A DNA stretch of 64,000 nt from a virus. Location: IMG/VR virus record IMGVR_UViG_3300029880_000008, positions 22,660 through 86,659 of that record. One strand, given 5' to 3'. Positions 275-46,279 of the stretch are shown here, piece by piece. The position numbers and the translations under genes were made by a program. The notes under the pieces are model-generated. The model saw nothing but the letters and a program-made list of their open reading frames with translations. It was not told the DNA's origin and did no database searches. Numbering within the stretch: position 1 is the stretch's first letter; every line of letters begins with the position of its first letter.

Positions 275-300
275 AATTCTATAATTTTGGTTACTAGTGG

Positions 301-308
301 CAAAGATA
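301..308 (-). promoter_or_regulatory. Bacteroidota-type -7 promoter box (TATCTTTG), extended TTTTCGTATCTTTGCC
   Basis: The minus-strand sequence TTTTCGTATCTTTGCC closely matches the boxes at 15596-15603 and 50636-50643. It lies about 25 nt upstream of ATG 274 and places the predicted TSS at the TAACCAA leader. Confidence 0.5.
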
Positions 309-357
309 CGAAAAGTTTATAATATAAACCATCGTCTTTGCCGTTTTTAACGCTAAT

Positions 358-876
358 TTAACCTTCCGAAGCAGTCTGCTTCTCGACTGATACGAGTCTT
401 AGGGTAGAACCATTATGGTCATTCCACACACGCATGTAGTCTTCCGCCTCATCCAATGCATCTTTATATGATTTTGCTCGGAATACGTACGGATTCTCCT
501 TAGGAATGAAAATTCCATCATTGTAGGCAATCTTATACTTTGCAGCATAGACACCAATATAGCCGTTCAGCTCATCGTTCAGACTAGTAGCGATGTCTGC
601 AAGAAGGTCAACGGGTATATCGTCATCTGTAGCTTTTGCTTCCGGGAATTCAAACCCTATAGAAGTGCATCGGCTATGAATGATAGGGATAGCCGTATCG
701 CTGCCGCCTACCTCTACTATGTTCACCTCCCTGTTGTCGTCGGCACGTACAGGCCAATCGAACACCTTTCTGCTCACATTTTGCTCTCTCATTATCTCAC
801 GGATGGTGCATGCAAGTTCCATCTTTGCTGTTGAACGCAACTCATCAATCTTGTCTTTCAGTACTTTTCTATCCAT
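358..876 (-). CDS. hypothetical protein (172 aa)
   Basis: ORF-track 358..909 trimmed to the internal ATG (MDRKVLKD), which carries the leader TAAACCAAAATATTAAGATTATG. No family recognised. Confidence 0.6.
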   Translation of the reverse strand: MDRKVLKDKIDELRSTAKMELACTIREIMREQNVSRKVFDWPVRADDNREVNIVEVGGSDTAIPIIHSRCTSIGFEFPEAKATDDDIPVDLLADIATSLNDELNGYIGVYAAKYKIAYNDGIFIPKENPYVFRAKSYKDALDEAEDYMRVWNDHNGSTLRLVSVEKQTASEG

Positions 877-933
877 AATCTTAATATTTTGGTTTAACTT
901 GATGCCCACCGTTTTCCGGCAGGCTTGTTTGGC

Positions 934-1506
934 TTAGTCTTTTCTTTCGATATCTAGGCCCGTAAGCACGCCTTTCATATAGGCTAATGTCTCTTCCTTG
1001 CATTCCGATAGAAACTTCTGGCATCCATCAATGATAACGCCGTACTTACCGCTCGGATAATTCTGTAGAGAGCACGAGTGGTAATGCTTTCCGGATTTCT
1101 CCTCGATTTCTCCTGCGAGTCGCTTCCCTTCGTCGGTCTCATTTGGACGATTTTCTGGGTACTCATCGTAAAAATACTCGTGCCATAAATCTAGTAGCAT
1201 ATCCTTGCAATCCTCCATATCTTGCAAAATATCCGATAATTTGTATGGTGCGCCGTTAGCACCATGTCCATCCTCGCCAATCCATTTACTGGCTTCCTCG
1301 TCAGGATCGAAGTCGCTATAATATTGATACAACTTATCCATGAAGTCAGACTTATTGCCATTCTCGAACCAAATTGTGGCAATGAAATCTTGGCCTTGTG
1401 GGGAATACTTCTCTAACTCGACGCAAACCTCACCTCTTTCGTTAGGTGTATCGTCAACATTATAACTCCATCCTAAATTCTCTGCTAATTTCAAAAAATC
1501 ATTCAT
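934..1506 (-). CDS. hypothetical acidic protein (190 aa)
   Basis: ORF track. Leader TTACCAATTAAAATTAAAGATATG lies upstream. No family recognised. Confidence 0.65.
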   Translation of the reverse strand: MNDFLKLAENLGWSYNVDDTPNERGEVCVELEKYSPQGQDFIATIWFENGNKSDFMDKLYQYYSDFDPDEEASKWIGEDGHGANGAPYKLSDILQDMEDCKDMLLDLWHEYFYDEYPENRPNETDEGKRLAGEIEEKSGKHYHSCSLQNYPSGKYGVIIDGCQKFLSECKEETLAYMKGVLTGLDIERKD

Positions 1507-1554
1507 ATCTTTAATTTTAATTGGTAAAACATTGCACCCTCCGAAGAGGGCTTT

Positions 1555-1950
1555 TTAGGCTTCCTGGTAAGCGAGAATCTGTATGTGACGCATCTCGAAA
1601 TTGACGAAGATGTTAAGATATATGCCATCGTCAGTAAGGAGCGTGGTTCCGTTGTTCTCCTCGGTGATAATTTTCTTTTGTTCTGTGCCAATAAGATTAT
1701 TCACCAAATCGTTTGCAACAATAGCAAGGCGTAGATTGTTCGCACAATCCTTTATCCATGTGACATCCATCGCATTGCCATATACCTCTGCGTGACAGGC
1801 GTTAGAATAGATAAAACCGACAGCCTCGTTGCATCTGTCGTCCGTATATTTACCTTCATCGAACATCTTCTCCCACAGAGACTCATAATAGAGTTCGTTC
1901 TCCATGTTGTAATTGTCCAACTTACACACATTTACATCTACTATTTCCAT
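1555..1950 (-). CDS. hypothetical protein (131 aa)
   Basis: ORF-track 1555..1992 trimmed to the ATG (MEIVDVNV) preceded by TAACCAATTAAATAGAATGATTATG. Confidence 0.6.
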   Translation of the reverse strand: MEIVDVNVCKLDNYNMENELYYESLWEKMFDEGKYTDDRCNEAVGFIYSNACHAEVYGNAMDVTWIKDCANNLRLAIVANDLVNNLIGTEQKKIITEENNGTTLLTDDGIYLNIFVNFEMRHIQILAYQEA

Positions 1951-2016
1951 AATCATTCTATTTAATTGGTTAATGTTGGGAGCGTGAAACAATAATGTTC
2001 CACGTCTTGTTCGGTT

Positions 2017-2451
2017 TTACACCGGCAGAGACACGATGTATTCCTTCTTCTTCTTTCGTGTTCTGCTCTTCACAGTGAATCCACAAAAATCTCTCAGCCA
2101 CCCGGCAGCATTGCCGATGAAAGGCTCGTTCACCATAAGGATAGGACGGAGCATTCCGTTCTTCTTCATGAACTGATAGTCGGTGAAGTCGAACGGATCA
2201 TCCAGGTCCTCACTCTTCTTTGCCCATATGTTCACGTCGAGATAGTCGATGAAGTCTCCCTCTGGCGGGTTGTCCATCTCGATGAATCTCTTTGGAGTCA
2301 GGAGAATCGTTTCTTTCGCCTCATGGGTCATAAAGAAATTCTCTACAACCTCATTGAACTTATTCATGTCCATCTGTTTCTGGACAATGCCCTTTCTCTT
2401 CATGATGTCGGAAGCTTTGAGCATTTTTGTTCCTCTTCTTGCTGTTGCCAT
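2017..2451 (-). CDS. hypothetical protein (144 aa)
   Basis: ORF track. Leader TAACCAATTAAAATTTTGAATTATG lies upstream. Confidence 0.6.
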   Translation of the reverse strand: MATARRGTKMLKASDIMKRKGIVQKQMDMNKFNEVVENFFMTHEAKETILLTPKRFIEMDNPPEGDFIDYLDVNIWAKKSEDLDDPFDFTDYQFMKKNGMLRPILMVNEPFIGNAAGWLRDFCGFTVKSRTRKKKKEYIVSLPV

Positions 2452-2510
2452 AATTCAAAATTTTAATTGGTTAGACATAGTACCCCGTCATTCCTGACGA
2501 GGATTTTTGG

Positions 2511-3215
2511 CTAGTGTGCAAGGAATCCTACCGCCTGCCCCTTACCGATGGACCAGCATAGTCTGTCTTCCTTCAGGCACTCTGTGCAGTTTCCGGTACA
2601 CAGACGTGTTCCTTCCGGAGCAGACGTTCCGCTCTCGAAGATAGGATGCGCCTCAGGGAATCCATGGCGGTTATCCATCTTAAGACCAAGCCATCCGCTG
2701 AATAGGATATGCATGTTCTCTGGGATTACATTGCCCTCATCGAGATACTCGTTGCATACATCGAACATCTTCGTGAACGCCAGGAACTTGGTATCCTTGT
2801 GCTTGCGTGCAATATCGCACATCTTGTCAAGATACCATTTATCCTGGATATCACCACCGATATGGAATCGGAAGGCGCGAGGGAATCTGTAGTCGAGATA
2901 CCCGTCAATCTCCTTGAAGTATCGCTCGGGATCCTCATGATAGATTGCCGAGCTGATAGCTCTCGTCTTGATTACCTCCTTGTAGATAAGGTCGTTTCGC
3001 AGGTCGTAGCAGCTCTTTGCACAGATAGCGCAGTTGCCGCAGTCCATGACCGGGATGAGTGATATGGAAGGGATTGCTCCCAATTTTGTATTGCCATCGC
3101 TAATCTTGACGTGTAGGTTTTCTACGTTCTCTAATGCGTTCTCATAAGCTGCCTGTGCCTTTGACAGACGAGTCTTCATTCCTTCCTTACCTAATGTCCA
3201 GTAATTTCTACTCAT
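2511..3215 (-). CDS. Cys-rich phage protein, GP88-like (tentative)
   Basis: ORF track with a leader unit upstream. The motif GNTKLGAIPSISLIPVMDCGNCAICAKSCYD resembles the TKLG...C..C...CY signature I recall for the mycobacteriophage GP88 family. Not verified by search. Confidence 0.55.
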   Translation of the reverse strand: MSRNYWTLGKEGMKTRLSKAQAAYENALENVENLHVKISDGNTKLGAIPSISLIPVMDCGNCAICAKSCYDLRNDLIYKEVIKTRAISSAIYHEDPERYFKEIDGYLDYRFPRAFRFHIGGDIQDKWYLDKMCDIARKHKDTKFLAFTKMFDVCNEYLDEGNVIPENMHILFSGWLGLKMDNRHGFPEAHPIFESGTSAPEGTRLCTGNCTECLKEDRLCWSIGKGQAVGFLAH

Positions 3216-3349
3216 AATTCTAATTTAAAATTGGTTAAACTTGTGGAACAAAAAACCGGCGTGTCTCACGACAGACCGGCTTGAACCATTTAAACAAAAT
3301 TTAGTTATGATATGAGTAGTCAGCCGCTGCTAACGACTGACCTGTTTGA

Positions 3350-3745
3350 CTAATCTTCATCTACTTTTACATTGTAGTGAAATCTTACTGTAAGGTAATC
3401 TGTGCTCAGAAAGAATGTATAGATTAAAGGCTCAGCCTGGCGTTCGTCGAGATACTGCTTCGTATCGTAATAGTATATGCTATTTTTTGATTCGCCAGTC
3501 AGTCGTTTGACAATCTCTCTACCCCACTCTGATGTAATCCACGATCGAAGCTTCCTGATAGATAGGTAGTTTCCGTGATACTCTATCATTGTAGGTGCAC
3601 CTCCGACAAATCCCAATGAAAAAAACTTATTGGTGAGATATTGCGAATCGTCAAAGATGGTGTCTAGAAGTGATTCCTCGACGACATTCTTCCCGTCAAT
3701 AGGAGCCTTCACATACTTTCTTGTATCTACATTAATTTCCTTCAT
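3350..3745 (-). CDS. hypothetical protein (131 aa)
   Basis: ORF track. Leader TAACCAATAAAATGAAGGATTATG lies upstream. Confidence 0.6.
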   Translation of the reverse strand: MKEINVDTRKYVKAPIDGKNVVEESLLDTIFDDSQYLTNKFFSLGFVGGAPTMIEYHGNYLSIRKLRSWITSEWGREIVKRLTGESKNSIYYYDTKQYLDERQAEPLIYTFFLSTDYLTVRFHYNVKVDED

Positions 3746-3863
3746 AATCCTTCATTTTATTGGTTAGACATAGAATCGGTTACCGAATCAGTAACCGACT
3801 TTTGGCTAGAATGATCCCCGGCTGGCGCCTTACTTTAATAGTTCGATCTAGAGAGCTTTAGCT

Positions 3864-3903
3864 CGAAGGATTACCTCCAGTAGTGACTGGAGGAGATCCT
3901 TCG
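3864..3903 (-). other. extended 16-bp hairpin in a 160-nt non-coding gap
   Basis: CGAAGGAT-TA-CCTCCAGT-AGTG-ACTGGAGG-AG-ATCCTTCG, read directly. It lies between the stop of 3971..5029 and the next intergenic unit. No ORF is present in 3810-3970. Confidence 0.4.
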
Positions 3904-3970
3904 TTGAAGAAGCTCTTGTGAATTTCTGCCGAGCCACCATTCTTTAGGCGGCGAACCTTACGTCTGATGA

Positions 3971-5029
3971 TTACTTGTTCTCGCTCTTGGCTTTCTTCCA
4001 TTCAAGAATCTTGCCCTGGACGCTGATATTATTGTCCTTGATAAGCTGCTTGAGTACACCGAGCATCTTCCAACCCTCTTCATCGTAGAGCTTGGCTTTA
4101 GACTCAAGTTCCTTCAGAGAATTGGCCTCTGACATCTTTCGTCCGTTCTTCATGAATCTTGCTCCATGGAACATGATGAGGTTTCTCATCGTGTAGTAGG
4201 AACCAGACCCTTTGTAAGCATGGATGAATGCATCTGCCTGCTTGGTATCCCACGCGAGATGCTTGCGGTTCTTGTTGAACTTGCGAACGGCATCGTAGAG
4301 ATCCTTGTGGTCGTCTACAGTAGCCATCTTGTTGGCAAGGTCACGGAGAGGATTGTATACCTTTCTATCCAAGTCAGCGACAAAAATGTCCTCGTTCTGA
4401 AGACGTACGTAAGGATTGCCCTTGCAGGTATGCTTATATGTCTTCTTCTTGTTTCCATCCTTGTCCTCCTTGGTAGTGTAGATGCACTTGTCGTCAATGT
4501 AGCTTCTGAGCTTTTTGATGTAGTCAATAGCCATATCGTATGCTACACAACCGTTGAACCAGCGATATCTCGCCTTTGTGTTCTCGTAGTCCTTGTGGTC
4601 ACACATCTTCATCTGAGCGTAGAGCTCATTTTCAAGCATGCGCCACTGATACTCGTAGCCCTTGCGCTGCAACACCTCGTTGAATGACAGATAACTCTTA
4701 TCCATGTCTCGCAACATGTGGAACATCTGACTCATCACCCAACGACGGAAGAGCTTCCAGTTACTTACGTATCCACCCTCTATAATCTGCCTGCCTACCG
4801 CATCGATGGTTGCATCGTCCATATCAACAGGGACAGCCGCACCATTTTCGATTTTGATAAGCTGATCATCACCGAGAGGGAAGTACTTACTTACGTCAAC
4901 GCCTGCTGCCTTAAGAGCTTCGAGACGCATCTGCGCCTTGGTCTTCTTACCTGCACAAGCTGCATTAACCTCTACATTGTTAGCTACTACCTTAAGATTC
5001 TCACCAGTGATTGTTACAATCTGCTTCAT
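3971..5029 (-). CDS. hypothetical protein (352 aa)
   Basis: Long ORF with a leader unit upstream. No family recognised. Confidence 0.7.
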   Translation of the reverse strand: MKQIVTITGENLKVVANNVEVNAACAGKKTKAQMRLEALKAAGVDVSKYFPLGDDQLIKIENGAAVPVDMDDATIDAVGRQIIEGGYVSNWKLFRRWVMSQMFHMLRDMDKSYLSFNEVLQRKGYEYQWRMLENELYAQMKMCDHKDYENTKARYRWFNGCVAYDMAIDYIKKLRSYIDDKCIYTTKEDKDGNKKKTYKHTCKGNPYVRLQNEDIFVADLDRKVYNPLRDLANKMATVDDHKDLYDAVRKFNKNRKHLAWDTKQADAFIHAYKGSGSYYTMRNLIMFHGARFMKNGRKMSEANSLKELESKAKLYDEEGWKMLGVLKQLIKDNNISVQGKILEWKKAKSENK

Positions 5030-5088
5030 AATTCAATTAATTTTAAATTGGTTATACTAAAAATTTATTTAACTCTAGTGGATGAGGC

Positions 5089-5541
5089 TTACGCCCCACC
5101 CTTGTTTGGCTCAATCCAGTCTCTGAGGATAATCAGATCCTTGTCGTTCTCGGACTTCCAGAACCATCTTCCCCATCTGTTCTCCCATGCAAGGTTGCCT
5201 CTTAGAAGCTGAATCAGTATGTATAGCTCCAGCTTACATCTAGCTACCTCCCGTCGCTCACCATACATCATATCTTCGTCTGAGAGCTCTTTCTCTGGCA
5301 AAGCCTTGAAGTAGTAGCGGCGATGGGATTCAGAACGCTCAGACGGCACAGAATGCTTGTATGCCTTATATCTCTGTTCTATTGCGAACAGGACTACTGC
5401 ATGTGTCAGGTAAGGTGTATCTTTCGGCTTATCTTCCTCGGACATCACTATCTTGCCATTCACTCTACATGTTCTCTTCTGGAAGTTGATGGTGAACTTT
5501 GCACCATTCTCAACTGCATTGATAATCTCGTCGTATGTCAT
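5089..5541 (-). CDS. hypothetical protein (150 aa)
   Basis: ORF track. Leader TAACCAATACAATAGAATTATG lies upstream. Confidence 0.65.
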   Translation of the reverse strand: MTYDEIINAVENGAKFTINFQKRTCRVNGKIVMSEEDKPKDTPYLTHAVVLFAIEQRYKAYKHSVPSERSESHRRYYFKALPEKELSDEDMMYGERREVARCKLELYILIQLLRGNLAWENRWGRWFWKSENDKDLIILRDWIEPNKGGA

Positions 5542-5573
5542 AATTCTATTGTATTGGTTAATAGGGATAGTGC

Positions 5574-5819
5574 TTATTCTTGCACTATCAAATTGGCTTC
5601 TTCGAGTTCATCCTTACTCAGTACATCTTCGTCTTCTCCGAAGTGGATATAGAATTTGTCTCCGTTCGCCCACTCCATTGCACGCATATACAACCAGTGA
5701 GCCTCTTCGATAGAGAATCCGTCTGCGCTTACTGAATCAAGCATCTCGCCCATGCAAACTTCTGACGTTTCGTACTCTTTCTTGATTTCCTCAAGCTTCT
5801 TTAGTAATCTGCTGTTCAT
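5574..5819 (-). CDS. hypothetical acidic protein (81 aa)
   Basis: ORF track. Leader TAACCAATATTTAAGAATTATG lies upstream. Confidence 0.6.
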   Translation of the reverse strand: MNSRLLKKLEEIKKEYETSEVCMGEMLDSVSADGFSIEEAHWLYMRAMEWANGDKFYIHFGEDEDVLSKDELEEANLIVQE

Positions 5820-5869
5820 AATTCTTAAATATTGGTTAATGGGAATGCGCTCAGAGAATCTGTTGCGTA

Positions 5870-7013
5870 ACTATAAGGTCTTGATTAATACTGTATCTGA
5901 GTCCTGACGGATCCAGGTAATCACCTGGATTCTCAGGATGGTTGATACCGTATTGTACAATCTATTCTCCTTGCGCACCATATCCGGCTCGCAATAACCT
6001 AGACTTATCTCATGTATTATGTTGCATGGATATATGTTCTCGATTCGGTCCCGTGACTGGATACCTGTGCCTGCGGAGATATCGGCAGGCACAGGTATTC
6101 CACCTTACGGGATATTAAACCTCATACTCTTGATAAGTCGTGATGCAATTCACATGGTTGTTTGTAGGTACACTCATAGGTCTGTTGTCTTGCTACAGGC
6201 TGATGATTGGAACCAGCTGGGTTTACGCGGGGAGCATCGTTGCTCTAAGGATGACTCCCCGCGTTATTTACCCAGCGGGTATAAATACGCAACCTCCTTG
6301 TGTACCTCGTTTGGCAATAACGTTGTCTTCATCTGAGAGTGTGGCACGTAGCTATAGCAGCTTGATTCGAGGGCTGTTGTAAGTCGCCGGATGGCACTGG
6401 GATTCCAGTGAAGGCCGGCGGCATGTAAACAGCACTATAAATTCACTCTCCTCTGAAGACTACCCTCGTGCTAGGGTAATTCCCTGACCGGTGGCTAGGC
6501 ACAATACTTTATGTTTCTGATTTGACACAGGATTCGCCAGAATAGATGATCCAGAGGTCGTAAGTAGTATACGACGCCCTCAGGATCAACTACTCTGGTT
6601 AAGAGACCTGTTGCATAAACTTCTGCCATCCATCAGGGAGTGGTGGTGTGCGCCACCGGTGGAAGTCATACGGACTGGCACATTTCTGTACTTCGTTGAT
6701 GAGCTACGCCTTGTGCGTCATACGAAGGTCCCGAGTTATCTCAAGTCGTAGACTTGGGTAACTCGAGGCCCTTCAGTTTGAGGTCTTCGAGGCGTCGCCT
6801 GAATCTATCCGTCCTTCTCCCACGTCCGTGTGCTCGGTTACAGAGTCTGCCGGTCAGAAGATACTGCGCATAGCTATATCAGATTGATAATATCCTGGTG
6901 GAGAGGATCGCTGGACCATCTCAGATTATGAGATGCTGTCCGCGATCTTCGAGACCGGATGTTTAAAACCTTGCGTCTTCATTCCGGCAAAATCCTTGCG
7001 CTAGGATGCTCAT
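5870..7013 (-). ncRNA. candidate large (~1.1 kb) structured RNA immediately 3' of the orphan reverse transcriptase
   Basis: - The only ORFs are short, random-looking ones, and the segment is visibly more G+C-rich than its flanks.
- It is packed with long perfect or near-perfect hairpins (plus-strand coordinates): 5903-5937, 6059-6101 (14 contiguous bp), 6213-6279 (nested 9+10 bp), 6383-6422, 6548-6587, 6730-6768 and 6917-6935.
- The strand is assumed to be that of the RT. The 6730-6768 stem contains a G-U wobble only in minus sense, while the 6383-6422 stem has one only in plus sense, so the strand is not settled. Confidence 0.5.
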
Positions 7014-8279
7014 CTACAGAGTATTCACCAATGTGTTGTACGCTGCCCTGCTCGTCCGCAAGGCGTTCTGAGCACAGCCGATTGATAGATACCCCTTGAT
7101 TTCGCTCTCTGTCTTACTCCTGTTAGCTTTCACGTTCCTGCCACGGCCTCGGTCTATGCAACCTACAGCCTGAGTCTTCACGTATCCGAGACCACCGACC
7201 TTTCTCTTGCCTGTCTTGACCGCACGGATGCAGTCCATGACGAATGCGTTGAGTTTGTCGATGTCCTGTTTCACGTTTATGACTGGAAGAACCTGAGTCG
7301 ACCAGGAATAATCGCAGTACCCCTTGTAGAGATACCTGTTTACTGCATTGATGGCTTTCGTCATCGTGGTGTCACGTTTCTTTATCGTCCTCTTCTCAAT
7401 CTCCTTCTGAAAGGTCTTGATGCGTGTGGACGACAAAGAGATATTGTGACCCTTGATGGAATATCCGAGGAACTTGAACCAGTGATTAGCGTCAAGATAC
7501 TCAACCTTCTTCGGATTGAGCGTCATCTGCATCATCTCCAGCTCGCTCTTCATGATATCCATGGCTTTCTCATAGTCTTCACCGACAAACAGCGTATCAT
7601 CTGAATAGCGGACGTAATATCCGTTAAGCTTAGATAGCTTGTCGTCAAGATGATAGAGAATGACATCAGCCAGCCATGCAGCAACAGAGCACCCCTGCTT
7701 GAGGGACTGATACTTCTCACAGAGGTTATTGTCCTCATCAAAATAGATATCTGTGTGATAGTAGTCACGAATGACATCTATCAGCGCAGATTTTCCGTAC
7801 TTCTCCTCTACCTTGTCAAATGCCCAGTCGATGAACCGAATGGGCACAGAATCAAAGTACTTGGAGAAGTCACCTTTCCATCCGATGATTTTTCCCTCTG
7901 CCGAGTATATTATCCGAGACACATCTTGCACCACACGACCGCAGCCGATACCCTTTTGGTATGACGTACAGCGCGGATGCACCATCTCTGGCATCAGCTC
8001 GAACAGGAGGTCGTTTGCTATACTCAAAAGGATTCTATCTACAGGCTCATTCACATAGACAGTACGGAAATCTCCGTTGTCTTTAGGAATCTTTGCTGTG
8101 TGTGGCGGCATTATCTTGTAATTGCCGCTCTTGATCCTCTGATACATAGCCAGACGAGCCTTTGGTGTTGTCAGCTGATACATTACTGCTTTGTTCATGT
8201 CCTTGAATAAGCCTTTCTCGATAGCATACTGCCATCTGGCTTTCTCAAAGAACATTTCTAGGATTCTGTCTTCATTCAT
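7014..8279 (-). CDS. reverse transcriptase, group-II-intron-like/orphan type (421 aa), not DGR-type and not retron-type
   Basis: RT motifs seen: IPKDNGDFRTVYVNEPVDRILL (motifs 1-2), GDFSKYFDSVP (motif 3), LKQGCSVAAWLADVIL (motif 4), YVRYSDDTLFVG (motif 5, YxDD) and LNPKKVEY...FKFLGYSI (motifs 6-7). It has a basic helical C-terminus and no endonuclease domain. It carries the same hairpin plus TAACCAAAACATAAGAATTATG unit as its neighbours. Confidence 0.9.
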   Translation of the reverse strand: MNEDRILEMFFEKARWQYAIEKGLFKDMNKAVMYQLTTPKARLAMYQRIKSGNYKIMPPHTAKIPKDNGDFRTVYVNEPVDRILLSIANDLLFELMPEMVHPRCTSYQKGIGCGRVVQDVSRIIYSAEGKIIGWKGDFSKYFDSVPIRFIDWAFDKVEEKYGKSALIDVIRDYYHTDIYFDEDNNLCEKYQSLKQGCSVAAWLADVILYHLDDKLSKLNGYYVRYSDDTLFVGEDYEKAMDIMKSELEMMQMTLNPKKVEYLDANHWFKFLGYSIKGHNISLSSTRIKTFQKEIEKRTIKKRDTTMTKAINAVNRYLYKGYCDYSWSTQVLPVINVKQDIDKLNAFVMDCIRAVKTGKRKVGGLGYVKTQAVGCIDRGRGRNVKANRSKTESEIKGYLSIGCAQNALRTSRAAYNTLVNTL

Positions 8280-8302
8280 AATTCTTATGTTTTGGTTATT
8301 GT

Positions 8303-8326
8303 GCGCAGTCCTTAGCTGCGCTTTTT
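8303..8326 (-). promoter_or_regulatory. representative intergenic hairpin of the repeated unit
   Basis: GCGCAG-tcctta-CTGCGC. On the plus strand it is flanked by TTGGTTATT and TTTTTAGGC. Confidence 0.5.
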
Positions 8327-8491
8327 AGGCAATGTTATTTCATCGCAGGGGAAGCACTGGTCTATAGGCCACCAGTATTCATTATCAATTCCCGCGAATC
8401 CTCTTTCCTCTGAAACGTGAGTGACAACGTGTTCCTTTGATTGGGAATGTATGTCGCAGAATACCCTCGTTCCTACTTTGATTTTCTTCAT
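8312..8491 (-). CDS. small hypothetical protein (59 aa)
   Basis: Translated by hand: MKKIKVGTRVFCDIHSQSKEHVV...CFPCDEITLPKKRS. ATG 8491-8489 is preceded by TAACCAAAAATATTAGAGATATG. It falls below the ORF-track size cutoff. Confidence 0.45.
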   Translation of the reverse strand: MKKIKVGTRVFCDIHSQSKEHVVTHVSEERGFAGIDNEYWWPIDQCFPCDEITLPKKRS

Positions 8492-8541
8492 ATCTCTAAT
8501 ATTTTTGGTTATTGGTAGGGAGATTGCTCTCCCCGTTTGGC

Positions 8542-8769
8542 TTAGTCGATGTGCTGGAGTGCTACGCTGTCATCTTCTTCGGATTCTCTCCAGTACTCCT
8601 GATCTGGTTCGATCTCGATAACCTCACCTGAGAAATTGTCAGCGTCAAGAATAATATCGCTATTATTATAGGCATCCTGCACTTTCTGTACGGCTTCATT
8701 CTCACTCTCAGCATCAACGCTGACTACCTTGTTCAAATGTTCTGTGACTGATACGTAATATCTCTTCAT
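8542..8769 (-). CDS. hypothetical acidic protein (75 aa)
   Basis: ORF-track 8542..8889 trimmed to the ATG (MKRYYVSV) that carries the leader TAACCAAATTATTAAAGATTATG. Confidence 0.55.
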   Translation of the reverse strand: MKRYYVSVTEHLNKVVSVDAESENEAVQKVQDAYNNSDIILDADNFSGEVIEIEPDQEYWRESEEDDSVALQHID

Positions 8770-8798
8770 AATCTTTAATAATTTGGTTAATGATGTCA

Positions 8799-8814
8799 GA
8801 GGGATTGCTCCCTC
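8799..8814 (-). promoter_or_regulatory. representative intergenic hairpin of the repeated unit
   Basis: GAGGGA-ttgc-TCCCTC followed by CGTTTTTAGGCTA on the plus strand. The TTGC loop is shared with the hairpin at 8518-8533. Confidence 0.5.
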
Positions 8815-8819
8815 CGTTT

Positions 8820-9077
8820 TTAGGCTAATGCGTTCAATACTCTGTGGGCGTTGTATGCGACAGGATTGCTGTACTTTGCTTTCTCCCACTTTTTACGCTC
8901 ACAAACTTTCAGGCAATACTCATGTGCTATATTCTCTGATAGTGCATCGAACGTGTTGTGTGTAATATCTGATGGCTTACCGAAATAAACTCTGTAACCA
9001 TCCCTGTAGCATACTATACGTCTGCCCAGTCTGTAGATGGTTCTACTGCCCTTCTCTACAAATGTAATTCTTTCCAT
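8820..9077 (-). CDS. hypothetical protein (85 aa)
   Basis: ORF-track 8820..9149 trimmed to the ATG (MERITFVEKG) preceded by TAACCAAATACAGAGAATTATG. Confidence 0.55.
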   Translation of the reverse strand: MERITFVEKGSRTIYRLGRRIVCYRDGYRVYFGKPSDITHNTFDALSENIAHEYCLKVCERKKWEKAKYSNPVAYNAHRVLNALA

Positions 9078-9124
9078 AATTCTCTGTATTTGGTTATTGG
9101 CAGGTAGCCAAATGGCTACCAATT

Positions 9125-9457
9125 TTAGGCTCTGTTCCATGCTTCCCACGCTTCATTCGTGTTCTTGGTGATTGCCTCGTTCCAAAGCTTCTCCATGTTG
9201 TAGAAAATTTCCTGAAATGCTTTAGGGGTATCCTTCGGATCAATCTTCTTGCCGAAATACGGGCGTCCACATCTTCTTTCGTCGTGCTCCCAGATGCACC
9301 GTATCATTCCCGTCTCCGTTGGAGTGCATCCGAGGAATGTTCCCATTGTACCGAATGTCTTTTCTCTAAGCCACTTCGGATAAGGAACGTAGATTGTCCA
9401 CGCATCCACGCAGTCACGGAACTTCTTTCTTGTGTCGTGATAAAGTTTCAATTTCAT
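9125..9457 (-). CDS. hypothetical protein (110 aa)
   Basis: ORF-track 9125..9496 trimmed to the ATG (MKLKLYHD) preceded by TAACCAAATTACAAAGAATTATG. Confidence 0.55.
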   Translation of the reverse strand: MKLKLYHDTRKKFRDCVDAWTIYVPYPKWLREKTFGTMGTFLGCTPTETGMIRCIWEHDERRCGRPYFGKKIDPKDTPKAFQEIFYNMEKLWNEAITKNTNEAWEAWNRA

Positions 9458-9506
9458 AATTCTTTGTAATTTGGTTAATGGAAGAGGAGCATGCAAGCTC
9501 CCCTTG

Positions 9507-10328
9507 TTAGGCTGTTTCTTTTAGTTTGATTCCATTCTCTTCGAGAGCGTCTTTAATCAGCTCGTCAGAGTCCTCGTAGTACTCTCCCCAGCAGGAATCA
9601 ATCTGCTCCCAGTCGTAGTCGTCCTCCGGCTCACGACCTATTTCCGTGAAGACTTTCTTGTAATGGACTTTCTTCTCTAAGACGAACCCCTTAACATCTC
9701 CCCACATCCAAAGACCTATGCACTTAACCTCATGCTCAAATAGGTCCAAGGCTCGCTTTCTCCAGTTTTTTGTATTAGTGTCACAATACTTTGAGAAACG
9801 CTTCTTGTCGCAGTAGGCATATCCGCTGACATAATCTCCCTGGTTGTATCCAGTAGAGGACCACTCGTAGAATGCAATATCCTTACAATCGTGCAGAAGG
9901 TACGTGAAATCGTCCTCTTCGAGGATATCGCAAAGTTCCTCTCTATAGTCGAATCTCTTCAAGTCGCTCGGGCAGAACTCTTCGTGGTTATACCACTCAC
10001 CCTCGTACAGACTTTCAAGATACCACATGCGGTCACTCTTGTCATAGCGCATACGGTAATTGTCGACGTTTTCACTATTGATATAATCAATAATCTTCTT
10101 TTGTGACACGTAGTTACAAACTAGATCCTTCAATGCATCCTCCGCATTTTTAGCGTTGACTTCGCTGCTACAACCACGAGAAAGCCACCTGTTGTATCCG
10201 TAATCGGAATAGTCCCAGAAGTAAACTCCCACCAAATCCCATTCTGTGCAAGGGCATTCGGCATCCTCATCCTGGTAAATGGTGATTCTGTAATCACCAA
10301 TCTCCTTCTTTGCAAATTCGTAACTCAT
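9507..10328 (-). CDS. hypothetical protein (273 aa)
   Basis: From ORF-track 9507..10340. The second ATG (MSYEFAKK) has the usual spacing to the AACCA leader, but the first ATG at 10340 cannot be excluded. Confidence 0.65.
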   Translation of the reverse strand: MSYEFAKKEIGDYRITIYQDEDAECPCTEWDLVGVYFWDYSDYGYNRWLSRGCSSEVNAKNAEDALKDLVCNYVSQKKIIDYINSENVDNYRMRYDKSDRMWYLESLYEGEWYNHEEFCPSDLKRFDYREELCDILEEDDFTYLLHDCKDIAFYEWSSTGYNQGDYVSGYAYCDKKRFSKYCDTNTKNWRKRALDLFEHEVKCIGLWMWGDVKGFVLEKKVHYKKVFTEIGREPEDDYDWEQIDSCWGEYYEDSDELIKDALEENGIKLKETA

Positions 10329-10383
10329 ATCTAATATCATTTAAATGGTTTAACATTGAATATCCCCATGCTAGGGGATATTG

Positions 10384-10923
10384 TTAGGCTTCCTCATAAT
10401 CTTCCTCCATCATGGAGTGAACCTCTTCAAGCTCGTTCGAGAAATTGTACTTGATGTTGTACGTGCCGAAGGCCTTGAAATACCATTCTTCGAGGTACGC
10501 TCTGTCCTTGTTAGCCTGCTCGCTGTCCTCTGCGGAATCAAGTCGGGCTACCATCTGAGGATACAAATCGTAGTAATCGTCGCCATCGTAGTCTGATGCC
10601 CACCAAACACCTGTTCTGCGCTTAGGGTAGTCCTCGTACAGATTGGCAAAATTGCCATTCATGTGCTGGTCATTAAGATGTAGATATTTCTTCATTTCCT
10701 TGTTTGCCTTATGGGTAAACTCCCACGCAAGAGACTGGATATTCTTTTCGAATACATCTGCAATGTATTCTTCCAGATCTTCTGCGTCATCGAAATTTTC
10801 AAGACACTCACGATAGAGGCTCTCGATAACCGCGGCAAAACTTGCCACACCGATATAATCGGCTACTTTCTCGACAACTTCACCCTTGTTGTTCATAACA
10901 ACTTCTACAATATTCTTTTCCAT
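10384..10923 (-). CDS. hypothetical acidic protein (179 aa)
   Basis: ORF track with a leader unit upstream. Confidence 0.65.
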   Translation of the reverse strand: MEKNIVEVVMNNKGEVVEKVADYIGVASFAAVIESLYRECLENFDDAEDLEEYIADVFEKNIQSLAWEFTHKANKEMKKYLHLNDQHMNGNFANLYEDYPKRRTGVWWASDYDGDDYYDLYPQMVARLDSAEDSEQANKDRAYLEEWYFKAFGTYNIKYNFSNELEEVHSMMEEDYEEA

Positions 10924-10975
10924 AATTCATCTGTTTAATGGTTCATAATGGTTCCCCACATTATCGTGGGGAGGT

Positions 10976-11215
10976 TTAGCCACATATGGCAATGTCGCCA
11001 TAATTTCTGAAGAAATGCTTGTACGCCTCAAGACCACTGGCAGCTTTCAAGTCTTTGACCTCTAGCTTACCGGTATCCTTGCGTACCTCTGCAATAGAGT
11101 ATGTATTGTCGTGCGTCCACTTGATGAGGTCCACACGCCTAACAGGATTCTCTACTGACTCTACGATTTTACACTTCAGTAAATCGTCATTCAGGATTTT
11201 CTCTAATTCACTCAT
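10976..11215 (-). CDS. hypothetical protein (79 aa)
   Basis: ORF track. Start context is AATTATG. Confidence 0.55.
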   Translation of the reverse strand: MSELEKILNDDLLKCKIVESVENPVRRVDLIKWTHDNTYSIAEVRKDTGKLEVKDLKAASGLEAYKHFFRNYGDIAICG

Positions 11216-11224
11216 AATTATAGA

Positions 11225-11380
11225 TTAATTATAGTTACACATTATTTCTGTCTCACTGATAATTTCAGCACAATACTTGCAGCGATGGCACATTATGTAG
11301 CCTTTTGCCAGCAATTTGCTGAACTTCGGATATGGGCATTTCTCGCCCATGCCAGCTCTCGTAATCTCAATTTTCTTCAT
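11225..11380 (-). CDS. small Cys-rich protein (51 aa), zinc-ribbon-like
   Basis: Hand translation: MKKIEITRAGMGEKCPYPKFSKLLAKGYIMCHRCKYCAEIISETEIMCNYN. Leader TAACCAAACAGATTGAAATATG lies upstream. It falls below the ORF-track cutoff. Confidence 0.45.
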   Translation of the reverse strand: MKKIEITRAGMGEKCPYPKFSKLLAKGYIMCHRCKYCAEIISETEIMCNYN

Positions 11381-11437
11381 ATTTCAATCTGTTTGGTTAA
11401 TAGAAATCCACACCCGTGAGAGTGAGGATTGTTTTGG

Positions 11438-11902
11438 CTAATCACCGAAATCGCTTTCGTCCTGATCGTACCACCAGTCCTGGAATCGATTCGCAACCTC
11501 TTCCAATGCATACTTAGCAAATGTGTCGTAGATATTTCTGCTCTCGCCCTCGTTAAAAGGAGCATACAGAGCCTTGCCGATAGCATCATAGGTGACGGAT
11601 TTGTCGTCCTTGAAATTCCCGAAGCCCTTAATCATCGTGATAAGGTCTTCTCCTAAATCATCGGCAAGCTCATGCATATTCTCCATGATAGCACTCTTGT
11701 TCTCGTTCCAGAACTTGCTTGTTTGAGAATGATAACAGAATCCAGTGTACCCCTCATTGGCATTTCTGACCTTATCGAGCGTATTAAGCATTGTGTCTTC
11801 ATTAACACCGCCAAGCTGCTCTACTACGGCATATGCCATCTTTACGAATGATGGATTATCATTTTCCTTGATAAACGCATCCCATACTTTCTGTATATTC
11901 AT
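11438..11902 (-). CDS. hypothetical acidic protein (154 aa)
   Basis: ORF track. Leader CAACCAAAATACAGAAATATG lies upstream. Confidence 0.65.
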   Translation of the reverse strand: MNIQKVWDAFIKENDNPSFVKMAYAVVEQLGGVNEDTMLNTLDKVRNANEGYTGFCYHSQTSKFWNENKSAIMENMHELADDLGEDLITMIKGFGNFKDDKSVTYDAIGKALYAPFNEGESRNIYDTFAKYALEEVANRFQDWWYDQDESDFGD

Positions 11903-11962
11903 ATTTCTGTATTTTGGTTGATAATAGAAACGAGCAAGCGCACCATACGCTTACCCGTAATT

Positions 11963-12181
11963 TTAGCCGAAAACCCAGATAGCCGTAGTTCTTGCACAAA
12001 TGGCATACAGCTTTCCGCTGTGACCACGGAACAGCATTCCGTTGCATCCGTACACACCGGAAGAATAGCCTACCTGACTATATTCTTCCGGGATGGCTGC
12101 ACGGCTTGAACTGTGTGTTATATCCTTGGCAGCTCCTACTCTAACGAGTCTCTTCAACTCTTTCTGTGTCATTTTCTCCAT
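11963..12181 (-). CDS. hypothetical protein (72 aa)
   Basis: ORF track. Start context is AGAATTATG. Confidence 0.55.
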   Translation of the reverse strand: MEKMTQKELKRLVRVGAAKDITHSSSRAAIPEEYSQVGYSSGVYGCNGMLFRGHSGKLYAICARTTAIWVFG

Positions 12182-12243
12182 AATTCTTTAATTTTGATGA
12201 TTTAACATGGTTTCTGTGCAGTCTATCTGCACAGAATGTTTGG

Positions 12244-12420
12244 CTAGAACTTGCGAGGGCGCATGCACGATTGCTCAATCTCCTGAGCCTTTTTGTCTGC
12301 ACGTGCTACGCGTCTGAAATACTCGCTCTTGTCGAGATTCTTGCGTCTGCACTCCTCGCTGATAACTGCCTTGTGACTCGCTACGAGCCTGGCAAGGAAC
12401 TTTCTGTCTCCGTCTGTCAT
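12244..12420 (-). CDS. small basic protein (58 aa), ribbon-helix-helix-like (tentative)
   Basis: Hand translation: MTDGDRKFLARLVASHKAVISEECRRKNLDKSEYFRRVARADKKAQEIEQSCMRPRKF. Leader TAACCAAATCAAAATTCAGAATTATG lies upstream. The stop TAG sits in TAGCCAAAC. The ORF-track 12275..12499 is in another frame and is judged spurious. Confidence 0.45.
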   Translation of the reverse strand: MTDGDRKFLARLVASHKAVISEECRRKNLDKSEYFRRVARADKKAQEIEQSCMRPRKF

Positions 12421-12483
12421 AATTCTGAATTTTGATTTGGTTAATAATAGAAGCAGGACACAGGACGTGCCCCGCTGTTTTGG

Positions 12484-12630
12484 CTACTTGCCACCGCACG
12501 CAATACTATGAGGACAGCAATGAATCTTGCCATCCGTCAATCCGTGAAAGCAGCACCCTACACATCTCTCTGTGACTATATCCCACTCTCGCTCTATTCC
12601 GTGTCTGTCAGTTACTCTTACTGTTTCCAT
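12484..12630 (-). CDS. small Cys-rich protein (48 aa)
   Basis: The internal ATG of ORF-track 12484..12759 (METVRVTDRHG...CVGCCFHG...HCCPHSIACGGK) carries the leader TAACCAAAACATATAGAATTATG. Confidence 0.45.
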   Translation of the reverse strand: METVRVTDRHGIEREWDIVTERCVGCCFHGLTDGKIHCCPHSIACGGK

Positions 12631-12689
12631 AATTCTATATGTTTTGGTTAATAGCAGGCAGCACATTATCGTACTACCCATTTTTTTGG

Positions 12690-12959
12690 CTAGAGATTGT
12701 ACACCGGACTTTCTGAAGCACACAGAATCGTAGGACCGGTGAGGATGGAGAACGCACAAGGGTCGAAACTATCGACTTTCTTCATGCTCTCTATCTTCTT
12801 CTGTACTACATCACGTATGGATGACAGATTAAGTCTGCCGTCGATAGGCATAATAGAATCCATGCCCACCATTTCCACAACGCTCACCTCATCGGTGAAT
12901 CTCATGTTCACAAGGTCAAACTTGTTAATCTTATGATAAAACTGAATCCACTTGCTCAT
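12690..12959 (-). CDS. hypothetical protein (89 aa)
   Basis: ORF track. Leader AAACCAAAAATGTAGAATTATG lies upstream. Confidence 0.55.
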   Translation of the reverse strand: MSKWIQFYHKINKFDLVNMRFTDEVSVVEMVGMDSIMPIDGRLNLSSIRDVVQKKIESMKKVDSFDPCAFSILTGPTILCASESPVYNL

Positions 12960-13008
12960 AATTCTACATTTTTGGTTTATAGGAGAGGGAGAAATAACTC
13001 CCTCAATT

Positions 13009-13296
13009 TCAGGCTATGTACTTCTTGAGAAATTCTGCGAGCTTATTGTATTCATCGTCAATTTCCTCCTTGTTATCCACATGAAAGAAATTTGCGGTAC
13101 AGCTGTCTTTTATGTTAGCCGTGCCATCAAAAAAGACAGCAGCATGAGCAGACATAGAGCCAGTGTCGCCGTCTAATCTGACAGTAAGGCTCACACCTGG
13201 CAGATTCTCTGCCAAATCTCTCTGAATTTCCTGCAACTGCGGTAGGATGGTAGAACGTATGTACTCTACATTCTCCTTGTATTCTTCATCTATCAT
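13009..13296 (-). CDS. hypothetical protein (95 aa)
   Basis: ORF track. Leader TCACCAAAAATTATAGATTATG lies upstream. Confidence 0.55.
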   Translation of the reverse strand: MIDEEYKENVEYIRSTILPQLQEIQRDLAENLPGVSLTVRLDGDTGSMSAHAAVFFDGTANIKDSCTANFFHVDNKEEIDDEYNKLAEFLKKYIA

Positions 13297-13348
13297 AATC
13301 TATAATTTTTGGTGAATAATTGTATGCGTGACAATCGCCACGCACATT

Positions 13349-13525
13349 TCAGCTCATGCACAATACTGCAATCTCAGAGAAGCTCTTGGAAATAGCCTCC
13401 TTGCTACGATAATCTCTGTAGCCTCTGGTATTATTATTGTGCCACTGGCGTGCAGCAATCTTGATCTTCTCCATCTCATGCATAAGCGCACGCTCAAAAT
13501 TCTTCTGTGATTTTCTGTCTAACAT
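13349..13525 (-). CDS. small hypothetical protein (58 aa)
   Basis: Hand translation: MLDRKSQKNFERALMHEMEKIKIAARQWHNNNTRGYRDYRSKEAISKSFSEIAVLCMS. Leader TAACCAATTAAGCAAAAGAATTATG lies upstream. The + ORF 13328..13510 is judged spurious. Confidence 0.45.
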   Translation of the reverse strand: MLDRKSQKNFERALMHEMEKIKIAARQWHNNNTRGYRDYRSKEAISKSFSEIAVLCMS

Positions 13526-13548
13526 AATTCTTTTGCTTAATTGGTTAT

Positions 13549-13915: not shown

Positions 13916-13933
13916 GGCTACAGATTTTTAGGC

Positions 13934-14068: not shown

Positions 14069-14117
14069 AATTCTAATATTTTTGGTTATTGTTCCCTACA
14101 CGCGTAGGGAGATTAGG

Positions 14118-46277: not shown

Positions 46278-46279
46278 GA

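Follow-up and report, generated by a model that had tools for sequence, protein, structure and literature searches.

A UG27 reverse transcriptase of a gut phage and its array of RNA units

The 64,000-nt stretch of viral DNA analyzed here (the window; positions 22,660 to 86,659 of the IMG/VR record IMGVR_UViG_3300029880_000008) encodes a reverse transcriptase (RT) that is directly followed, on the minus strand, by 1144 nt (5870-7013) in which no credible protein-coding gene is apparent. The question raised by this locus is to which class the RT belongs and whether the adjacent segment is an RNA on which it acts. An initial annotation made from the sequence alone treated the RT as an orphan, the segment as a single structured RNA of ~1.1 kb, an order of magnitude larger than the known RT-associated RNAs, and the combination as a possibly undescribed system. 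The analysis described below shows that the locus is a typical, complete UG27 system that consists of the RT, both accessory genes and the RNA units (Table 1).

The reverse transcriptase belongs to the UG27 family

Judging by its sequence, the RT is a full-length member of UG27, a class 2 family of UG/Abi RTs from gut phages. A search against the PADLOC profiles identified RT_UG27 as the best match (752 bits, E = 4.2e-227, profile positions 2-420 of 420), with a score ~7 times that of any other profile, the second-ranked being RT_UG26 with 112 bits. Pfam recognizes RVT_1 alone (residues 64-275) and reports no maturase or endonuclease domain. The YSDD active site is conserved, with D227 and D228 invariant in all 45 diverse RTs compared, and both this motif and the protein length agree with those of the UG27 RTs (380-450 aa with a YSDD motif; bioRxiv 10.64898/2026.09.22.753630). 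The UG27 family was described by Mestre et al. (2022, NAR) as a class 2 UG/Abi RT that occurs in gut phages of Bacteroidetes/Firmicutes together with two accessory clusters and a putative ncRNA that is long and intergenic (PMC9226505).

The initial annotation thus identified correctly the minus-strand RT gene with its YVRYSDD motif and its distinctness from the DGR, retron and group II types, which is borne out by the UG27 profile match and by RVT_1 being the only Pfam domain. The proposal of an undescribed system fails on a ground that the annotation itself had named: the RT falls, by the PADLOC profiles, within a known family, and the known partner RNA of that family maps to the segment in question. 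The system is already known, the RT from the 2022 description (PMC9226505) and the array together with its cDNAs from a September 2026 preprint (bioRxiv 10.64898/2026.09.22.753630), which reports 14,708 UG27 loci. UG27 is one of the most frequent RT systems in human-gut phages; the 90% cluster of the present RT comprises 6,526 member sequences.

Organization of the locus and accessory genes

Reading along the minus strand, the RT gene is followed by a seven-unit ncRNA array, a variable gene for an 81-aa protein, the small (sORF) and large (bORF) accessory genes and a solo RNA unit. Accordingly, the RT is no orphan, two conserved genes being located beyond the array. In almost every complete locus with an RT at least 50% identical, tblastn detects a homolog of the sORF product adjoining the RT gene; bORF is always a neighbor of sORF, and among 80 genome loci both are retained with the RT in the complete ones. 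In the loci of Alistipes putredinis DSM 17216 (L158) and Phocaeicola coprophilus DSM 18228 (L110), two of the systems assayed experimentally (bioRxiv 10.64898/2026.09.22.753630), the sORF protein is 52% and 46% identical to that of the present locus, respectively, and the bORF protein is 40% identical in both, with RT identity of 67-68%. Both accessory genes are assigned here by tblastn homology. The 81-aa gene between the array and sORF is missing in about one quarter of the close relatives.

No Pfam domain was found in either accessory protein, in line with the description of the UG27 accessory proteins as lacking known domains (bioRxiv 10.64898/2026.09.22.753630). The same holds for all 822 homologs of bORF, of which the few named in their source are called 'hypothetical protein'. 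The AF2 model of bORF is mostly helical (pLDDT 60); neither Foldseek against the PDB (E <= 0.001) nor a profile search of PDB sequences returned a match.

Table 1. Components of the UG27 locus in window coordinates, with the predicted RNA elements of each unit (z, folding z-score of the central hairpin; R1 and R2, E-values of the respective models)
Feature	Coordinates	Strand	Length	Basal hairpin, loop	3' element	Predicted cDNA template (length)	z	R1	R2	Remarks
UG27 reverse transcriptase	7014-8279	minus	421 aa							active site YVRYSDD
Tandem array, seven UG27 ncRNA units	5863-7013	minus								begins immediately past the RT stop codon
Unit 1	6866-7013	minus	148 nt	7008-6991, AGCGCA	UGCGC	6967-6886 (82 nt)	-5.2		7e-4	
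Unit 2	6678-6865	minus	188 nt	6839-6824, AGCACA	UGUGC	6803-6698 (106 nt)	-4.6	missed	missed	longest unit
Unit 3	6499-6677	minus	179 nt	6658-6642, CGCACA	UGUGC	6619-6519 (101 nt)	-7.1	1e-4	6e-8	
Unit 4	6344-6498	minus	155 nt	6478-6461, AGCACG	CGUGC	6441-6364 (78 nt)	-5.0		1.3e-4	
Unit 5	6185-6343	minus	159 nt	6324-6307, AUUGCC	GACAA (one mismatch)	6285-6205 (81 nt)	-6.7	0.15	2.3	slightly degenerate
Unit 6	6022-6184	minus	163 nt	6155-6138, AUUGCA	UGCAA	6119-6042 (78 nt)	-7.8		9e-9	
Unit 7	5863-6021	minus	159 nt	6001-5984, AUUGCG	CGCAA	5960-5883 (78 nt)	-5.4	4e-10	1.4e-7	array end
sORF, small accessory protein	5089-5541	minus	150 aa							tblastn homologs beside RT
bORF, large accessory protein	3971-5029	minus	352 aa							co-occurs with RT and sORF
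Unit 8, solo	3825-3970	minus				3922-3845 (78 nt)	-6.6	5e-4	5e-3 (model positions 58-175 only)	directly after bORF stop; exact AUCGAACUAUUAAAG at 3847-3833; UUCA

The intergenic segment is a tandem array of RNA units

As originally noted, the segment lacks a credible ORF, the longest on the sense strand being 73 aa (with a GTG start) and the chance ORFs on the plus strand 105 and 80 aa. The claimed elevation of G+C holds with respect to part of the surroundings (0.47-0.52 over 6150-7050 against 0.41-0.45 at 5400-5850 and 8100-8850) and is only partly distinctive, given the equally high G+C of the RT gene toward its 3' end. The 'at least seven long stems' correspond to exactly seven central hairpins, with z-scores from -4.6 to -7.8 and none of 200 shuffles folding as well. 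What had been taken for one large RNA is in fact a series of seven units of ~160 nt, comparable in size to other RT-associated ncRNAs. The initial annotation overlooked this periodicity, the eighth unit and both accessory genes further downstream.

The repeat is marked by the motif AUC-N7-UANAG, which recurs every 155-188 nt along the array: five exact copies are present on one strand of the 1.1 kb, where ~0.1 is expected, along with two that have one mismatch. Located 3' of the central hairpin, the AUCNNNNNNNUANAG motif is exact in units 1, 2, 3, 4, 7 and 8 and deviates by a single base in units 5 (UGUAG) and 6 (UAUAU). On the 5' side of the hairpin lies UUYA, in the form of UUUA or UUCA in units 1-6 and 8, with UUGUA in unit 7. 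The distance from UUYA to AUC is bimodal (~75-78 and 92-101 nt), in agreement with the unit classes of 149 and 167 nt that have been published. With unit lengths of 148-188 nt, the intergenic array resembles the published UG27 arrays, with units of ~135-167 nt (bioRxiv 10.64898/2026.09.22.753630), some units being slightly above the published modes.

For the solo unit 8, a basal hairpin or pseudoknot was not clearly found, a feature shared with the published pseudoknot-less class of UG27 units; the motif occupies the same position after bORF in many related loci. No terminator-like site was detected on the sense strand between the RT and the array; the accompanying promoter scan used a sigma-70-type consensus, which is uninformative for a phage of Bacteroidota.

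Conserved structure of the RNA units

Alignment of whole units with MAFFT followed by RNAalifold gave poor alignments and no consensus structure, and the fold was analyzed instead with motif-anchored 'mini-units' and covariance models. In units 1-7, a 4-bp hairpin carries a hexaloop whose nucleotides 2-6 form a pseudoknot with positions +4 to +8 downstream of UANAG. From the text of the preprint, we infer that these helices are its 'basal hairpin' and 'pseudoknot'. Already within the array, the loop and 3' element of unit 4 covary relative to units 2 and 3 (A:U to G:C).

The structure of the unit is strongly backed by covariation. In the pseudoknot helix, 92.7% of the cells are paired and every pair has changed on both sides (e.g., AU in 48 versus GC in 40). 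For the pseudoknot and the central stem base combined, the covariation score is 0.538 compared to 0.224 for shuffled alignments (0 of 500 as high), and sliding the partner lowers it to 0.24 or less. The basal hairpin is paired in 71-90% of the cases against 36-48% in shuffles, and among 21 orthologs of the unit 6 central hairpin, compensatory changes are found in 15 of the 22 pairs. For 125 units of distant loci, in an alignment fitted to the model, 92.7% of the cells are paired compared to 57% after shuffling, and all 27 pairs covary. A covariance model, R2, derived from 41 distant-locus units with no window-like sequence included, retrieved five of the seven array units at E < 0.001 and six of all eight at E < 0.01; the remainder of the 64 kb gives no E-value under 0.15. 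Combined with the synteny of RT and array, which persists to ~55% RT identity, the covariation upholds the view that the segment is a structured ncRNA functionally tied to the RT.

Other searches were less informative. A complement search comparing the unit's own with permuted 5' and 3' elements did not discriminate between them, owing to the conservation of these elements. The AUGUGCC element at the 5' end of the unit could also pair with a GCACA-like element (E2), but this second helix was inseparable from the pairing of the hexaloop with the 3' element and was dropped. No Rfam 15 family matched at the gathering threshold on the whole window or credibly at E <= 1 on 3600-8500, where the sole match, mir-3913 (E = 0.37), is on the wrong strand and attributable to chance.

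Predicted synthesis of DNA hairpins

We consider it very probable that the present locus is a complete, phage- or prophage-borne UG27 system that works as follows. The array would be transcribed along with the RT or from just downstream of it. In each unit, the hexaloop of the 4-bp hairpin would pair with the five nucleotides 3' of UANAG, closing the unit by a pseudoknot around a long interrupted central hairpin that is preceded by UUYA and followed by AUC-N7-UANAG. A complex of the RT with the sORF and bORF proteins would then start reverse transcription at AUC and end it after UUYA, yielding one single-stranded DNA hairpin per unit. The predicted templates (78-106 nt), considered as DNA, fold into hairpins with z-scores from -5 to -8.9.

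This scheme follows the homologous systems, in which arrays of ~150-nt units with the AUCNNNNNNNUANAG and UUYA motifs, a basal hairpin and a pseudoknot were described, each central hairpin is copied to a 50-100-nt ssDNA and all three proteins are needed (bioRxiv 10.64898/2026.09.22.753630). By analogy, we infer that the present locus makes cDNAs from its units, and among the roles suggested in the initial annotation, that of a template for cDNA synthesis appears to be the best supported.

It is very unlikely that this UG27 system functions through the array RNA as such, in the role of scaffold, sponge or regulator, with the cDNA being a by-product of heterologous overexpression. Such a reading would accommodate the demonstration of cDNA in E. 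coli with a T7 promoter and not in the native host, the reported absence of complementarity between the cDNAs and phage or host genomes (bioRxiv 10.64898/2026.09.22.753630), and the high conservation of the structured scaffolds. Against it stand the invariance of the two YSDD aspartates, the location of the cDNA ends at the two most conserved motifs in five of five assayed systems (bioRxiv 10.64898/2026.09.22.753630) and the fact that the copied part, not the scaffold, varies between phages.

Relationship to other reverse transcriptase systems

Still less probable, to the point of being hardly credible, is that the RT is a retron, group II intron, DGR or DRT2/DRT9-type enzyme and the RNA the partner typical of the class in question (msr/msd, ribozyme, TR, or concatemer/homopolymer template). 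There are similarities that point in this direction, namely the weak secondary PADLOC matches (UG26, Drt9 as the third-best with 97 bits, Drt2 with 44 bits, UG17, and retron RTs with at most 42.6 bits), the closest solved structures, which are group II intron RTs and one DRT9-like RT, and the short ssDNA hairpins that are expected as they are for retrons. However, none of these scores approaches that for UG27, and each class conflicts with other features of the locus. The retron assignment was rejected given the profile score, the absence of an Rfam match and the downstream, multi-unit RNA; the group II intron assignment, given that the Rfam intron families are unmatched even at E <= 1 and RVT_1 is the only Pfam domain; the DGR assignment, given that the sole TR/VR pair adjoins a second RT 38 kb away; and DRT2/DRT9, given the profile scores, the downstream position of the array and the small ORFs upstream of the RT.

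The weakest reading, in which the 1.1 kb is a decayed protein gene or an unconstrained spacer with incidental hairpins, could draw on the chance ORFs of 73-105 aa that overlap the region and on its divergence being faster than that of the RT gene (84% versus 95% nucleotide identity to relatives), but is refuted by the covariation of the pseudoknot, basal hairpin and central stem, as well as being contradicted by the periodic motifs, the synteny retained down to ~55% RT identity and scaffold parts that, at 0.86-0.96, exceed the fourfold-degenerate sites of the RT gene (0.84) in conservation, and we give it practically no credence.

As a UG27 system, the locus shares with the published ones the family, length and YSDD motif of the RT, a pair of domain-less accessory proteins, an extended intergenic array with units of roughly 150-190 nt, both bracketing motifs, the basal hairpin and pseudoknot, an extra unit in a neighboring intergenic region, array length polymorphism, residence in a gut Bacteroidota phage or prophage and a separate DGR with its own RT on the same phage. 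There is no substantial difference, apart from the 81-aa gene after the array and single-base motif variants in three units. DRT2 (UG2), DRT9 (UG28) and DRT3 (UG3+UG8) are likewise UG/Abi RTs templated by a dedicated structured ncRNA, and UG2 and UG28 also belong to class 2. However, these are host defense systems located in defense islands, with a single ncRNA (upstream of the RT in DRT2 and DRT9, whereas the present array is downstream) and without sORF/bORF partners; UG27 is not enriched in defense islands (PMC9226505), and other class 2 UG RTs reportedly produce long or concatemeric cDNAs and no discrete hairpins (bioRxiv 10.64898/2026.09.22.753630). Retrons resemble the proposed UG27 activity in that a hairpin-forming part of a structured ncRNA serves the RT as the template for an abundant, short ssDNA hairpin, but they belong to another RT clade, employ other effector proteins and possess one msr/msd unit upstream of the RT, with 2'-OH priming at a branching G and an RNA-DNA hybrid, as opposed to a multi-unit array.

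Phage context

The carrier is a temperate phage or prophage of Segatella (Prevotella) copri, consistent with the association of UG27 with phages and prophages of gut Bacteroidota or Bacillota. The window encodes TerL and a capsid-like protein (the capsid match being under the Pfam cut-off), 411 relatives were found in IMG/VR, and loci with RTs 94-98% identical to the present one are present in genomes of S. copri, among them the complete HDD04 chromosome; a megablast search of GenBank phages with 3800-8300 returned no match. The RT was originally described as an ordinary phage gene within an early-gene array with a common leader, and this stands: TAACCAA-N8-16-ATG has 21 matches compared to 1.4 expected, 19 of them on the minus strand between 272 and 14088, including the leader of the RT (8298-8277) and those of the small ORFs upstream of it. 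The separate DGR also noted there is present, with the only TR/VR pair in the window that shows adenine-specific differences (46113-46232 and 46488-46607) and the second RT at 46911-48281.

Variation of the predicted hairpin templates and its possible meaning

Among phages with RT proteins at least 94% identical, sequence identity is only 63-72% in the apical parts of the unit 2-6 central hairpins, compared to 81-96% for the unit scaffolds and 84% for the fourfold-degenerate sites of the RT gene. Between near-identical phages, the templated hairpins differ more than synonymous sites do; for unit 3 alone, 43 distinct orthologous hairpins are found among close relatives. The stems are maintained through compensatory changes, the array length is polymorphic even among close relatives, and the last array unit, unit 7, is conserved in sequence with the last units of distant loci.

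As a working guess, the variable hairpin DNAs could act as the effectors that carry specificity in a phage-host or phage-phage conflict, serving as protein-binding decoys or else as structure-specific ligands. A more specific version, which we regard as possible but rather doubtful, is that the copied hairpins are fast-evolving specificity cassettes and the array an exchangeable phage library of ssDNA ligands shaped by diversifying selection or cassette exchange, with a separate, constant role for the terminal unit.

The locus is no discovery in itself; its value is that of an annotated example with exact coordinates of eight predicted cDNA templates, in a prophage that is also present in a cultured, fully sequenced strain of S. 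copri (HDD04). The lead it offers on the role of the cDNAs is that the templated hairpins, not the scaffolds, vary fast among near-identical phages, the terminal unit excepted. If the cassette interpretation is true, the ssDNA ligands would be aimed at variable proteins of the host or of rival phages.

A UG27 reverse transcriptase and its accessory genes

The 421-aa reverse transcriptase (RT) contains a single Pfam domain, RVT_1 (residues 64-275), and in a PADLOC-DB search it matched the RT_UG27 profile over its full length (E = 4.2e-227, 752 bits, profile positions 2-420 of 420); lower-ranked profiles were RT_UG26 (112 bits), Drt9 (97 bits) and RT_UG17 (85 bits), and the top retron RT profile scored 43 bits. 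UG27 was defined as a class 2 UG/Abi RT by Mestre et al. 2022 (PMC9226505), who found it to be frequent among predicted viruses of Bacteroidetes and Firmicutes from the human gut, to show no enrichment in defence islands, and to be accompanied by two protein clusters of unknown function and a long intergenic stretch in which a structured ncRNA was proposed. A preprint (bioRxiv 10.64898/2026.09.22.753630, 24 Sept 2026) describes this region as a variable array of ~150-nt units (length modes of 149 and 167 nt; units of a further, 135-nt class have no pseudoknot), in which a basal hairpin and a pseudoknot accompany a main hairpin broken by an asymmetric internal loop. In E. coli, RT-dependent ssDNAs of 50-100 nt were obtained from five cloned UG27 systems; the cDNA starts at the AUC of the AUCNNNNNNNUANAG motif and ends after UUYA across the central hairpin, and its synthesis requires the RT and both accessory proteins, sORF and bORF. 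The initial annotation proposed an undescribed system and called for placement of the RT among the RT classes; that placement is in a known family, for which the ncRNA array and the cDNA output have already been published, and the locus is a typical, already described UG27 system.

A PDB sequence search with the RT found no UG27 RT among the solved structures, and the closest sequences were group II intron RTs (E = 1e-11), a DRT9-like RT and DRT2. Assignment of the RT to a diversity-generating retroelement (DGR) was rejected given that the only TR/VR pair in the window goes with a second RT, 38 kb away; a group II intron is ruled out by the absence of both a maturase and an endonuclease domain in the Pfam search.

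For comparison, 80 IMG/VR loci (RT 97-99% identical) and 80 genome loci (RT 50-98% identical) were collected, the latter including Segatella copri genomes (RT 94-98% identical), Phocaeicola coprophilus DSM 18228 (locus L110) and Alistipes putredinis DSM 17216 (locus L158); UG27 systems from the last two species were among those cloned (10.64898/2026.09.22.753630). Using tblastn, we detected sORF and bORF together with the RT in nearly all complete loci, down to ~50% RT identity, most often arranged as RT, array, sORF, bORF. Searches of Pfam and PHROG gave no domain and no significant match, respectively, for either protein, and the low-confidence AF2 model of bORF gave no structural match. The 81-aa ORF, likewise without Pfam or PHROG matches, is absent or replaced in about one quarter of the close, otherwise near-identical loci and hence is not a component of the UG27 system but variable cargo within its locus.

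Features of the UG27 locus and of the surrounding phage genome
Feature	Coordinates	Strand	Remarks
RT ORF, 421 aa	7014-8279	-	motif YVRYSDD
One-mismatch ATCN7TANAG copies	6207-6193; 6044-6030	-	fill gaps in the array
Last array unit	5863-6021	-	L158: 8270-8431; L110: 7937-8105
81-aa ORF	5574-5819	-	between array and sORF; own TAACCAA leader
sORF, 150 aa	5089-5541	-	tblastn homologues beside RT
bORF, 352 aa	3971-5029	-	tblastn homologues beside RT
Solo eighth UG27 unit	3825-3970	-	directly 3' of bORF stop; no clear basal hairpin or pseudoknot
Eighth exact ATCN7TANAG copy	3847-3833	-	directly 3' of bORF
D5_N/DUF5906 primase-helicase-like protein	16456-18018	+	
Terminase large subunit	24476-26113	-	
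Major capsid protein E	27782-28963	+	weak match
DGR, complete	45054-48281	+	target ORF, VR, TR, second RT
DGR target ORF	45054-46277	+	VR at 46113-46232
DGR TR	46488-46607	+	
DGR second RT, 456 aa	46911-48281	+	RVT_1

Structure of the ncRNA array

The description of an RT gene followed by 1144 nt without a credible ORF (7013-5870) is accurate, the longest sense-strand ORF being 73 aa; the G+C content of this segment does exceed that of the flanks (0.47-0.52 vs 0.41-0.45), but the RT gene is just as G+C-rich towards its 3' end. The Rfam search of the UG27 RNA region proposed initially matched no family. Counting both strands, the 64-kb window has 14 copies of the motif ATCN7TANAG, approximately the number expected by chance, and 5 of the 14 copies lie on the minus strand within 5871-6888; with two one-mismatch copies, the array contains seven such motifs, spaced 155-188 nt apart. 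In all eight units, UUUA or UUCA (UUGUA in unit 7) is located 75-103 nt ahead of the motif, and the intervening sequence is predicted to form one long interrupted hairpin (8 of 8 units, z = -4.6 to -7.8), with none of 200 shuffles folding as well. The predicted complementary DNAs (78-106 nt) fold equally well (z = -5 to -8.9). Among 327 units, the distance from UUYA to AUC is bimodal (~75-78 and 92-101 nt), which fits the two published unit-length classes.

Because whole-unit MAFFT alignments were unusable, we adopted motif-anchored mini-units, each a fusion of two segments, one from the 5' domain to 12 nt past UUYA and the other from 12 nt ahead of AUC to 12 nt past UANAG (n = 92; 7 units of the window plus 85 diverse ones). 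In this alignment, a pseudoknot joins five hexaloop nucleotides (loop consensus A-G-C-A-C-R) to positions +4 to +8 past UANAG, with 92.7% of the cells paired and both-side changes in 5 of 5 pairs (e.g., AU 48 and GC 40 at one pair; GC 47, AU 17 and UA 12 at another). The covariation score of this pseudoknot together with the central-stem base is 0.538; shuffles gave 0.224, none of 500 reaching the observed score, and sliding the partners gave no more than 0.24. The 4-bp basal hairpin that closes the hexaloop is 71-90% paired vs 36-48% in shuffles. From the text of the preprint alone, we take this hairpin and the loop-tail pairing to be its 'hairpin at the base' and 'pseudoknot'. The two pairing elements covary even within the single array of the window.

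Pairing elements of the units and their E-values with covariance model R2
Unit	Hexaloop	3' element	R2 E-value
1	AGCGCA	UGCGC	7e-4
2	AGCACA	UGUGC	
3	CGCACA	UGUGC	6e-8
4	AGCACG	CGUGC	1.3e-4
5	AUUGCC	GACAA (one mismatch)	2.3
6	AUUGCA	UGCAA	9e-9
7	AUUGCG	CGCAA	1.4e-7
8			5e-3

A covariance model built from 12 last units of distant loci (R1) recovered unit 7 (E = 4e-10), unit 3 (E = 1e-4) and unit 8 (E = 5e-4) with boundaries exactly as predicted, and gathered 125 units across 61 distant loci; in the resulting alignment, which is fitted to R1, 92.7% of the cells are paired vs 57% in shuffles, with double changes in 27 of 27 pairs. A second model (R2), built from 41 of these 125 units with the window and its close relatives excluded, did not find unit 2 on the minus strand of the window and, across the 64 kb, gave no match outside the units below E = 0.15.

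Conservation and turnover of the units

Among 85 close relatives (L001-L085; RT protein at least 94% identical), the array corresponding to 5820-7013 of the window, measured from the RT to the next gene, is between 510 nt (L059) and 1724 nt long, and most relatives have eight units vs seven in the window. Compared with the window, these loci show nucleotide identities of 95% (RT), 92% (sORF), 87% (bORF) and 84% (array). Between orthologous units, mean pairwise identity is 0.86-0.94 in the 5' domain and 0.81-0.96 from AUC to the 3' element, compared with 0.84 at fourfold-degenerate RT sites. For the apical portion of the central hairpin, it is 0.63-0.72 in units 2-6 (within 6042-6803, minus strand) and 0.89 in unit 7. 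Distinct variants number 31-37 for each of units 2-4, and distinct hairpins number 43 in unit 3 and 34 in unit 6; all distinct hairpins of units 3 and 6 still fold, and the orthologues of unit 6 show compensatory changes in 15 of 22 pairs. The covariation among homologous phages that the initial annotation had asked for is found in the pseudoknot, the basal hairpin and the unit 6 central hairpin; together with scaffolds more conserved than synonymous sites, it excludes a decayed protein gene. The comparison of hairpins with synonymous sites, which is rough in that hairpin gaps are counted and no phylogeny is used, suggests that the templated part changes faster than neutral sites; this low apical identity and the compensated stems point to diversifying selection or cassette exchange in units 2-6.

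The sequence of the last unit (e.g., ACAGUAUU...CCAGGYGAUUACCUGG...ACUGUAUU) is conserved between loci with RTs 65-68% identical, and the other units are highly variable. At the position of the solo unit, many related loci also carry a motif (e.g., at 10344 in L158 and 9832 in L110), so that unit 8 seems to represent a distinct class that is conserved.

Genomic setting

TAACCAA-N8-16-ATG, often as ...GAATTATG, precedes nineteen small genes on the minus strand (272-14088), with 21 matches in the window vs 1.4 expected. Short G+C-rich hairpins lie just upstream of several of these leaders (e.g., 8303-8321 and 8518-8533), in agreement with the leader unit originally noted for the neighbours of the RT. 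The leader probably serves the early region as a phage-specific promoter or translation-initiation unit. The separate complete DGR, with its own RT, was confirmed; its repeat core has 23 mismatches, every one of them TR-A to VR-N. GenBank phages yielded nothing close to the UG27 locus, and accordingly metagenomes and prophages seem to be the only sources from which this lineage is known.

Implications for UG27 function

The biological role of UG27 is described as unknown by the authors of the preprint (10.64898/2026.09.22.753630). For the array RNA, the best-supported role is that of a cDNA template, which agrees with one of the guesses made initially. Among the close relatives, bORF diverges much faster than the RT, with protein identities of 71-95% vs 94-99%. 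This divergence hints at a possible variable partner of bORF, as of the hairpins.
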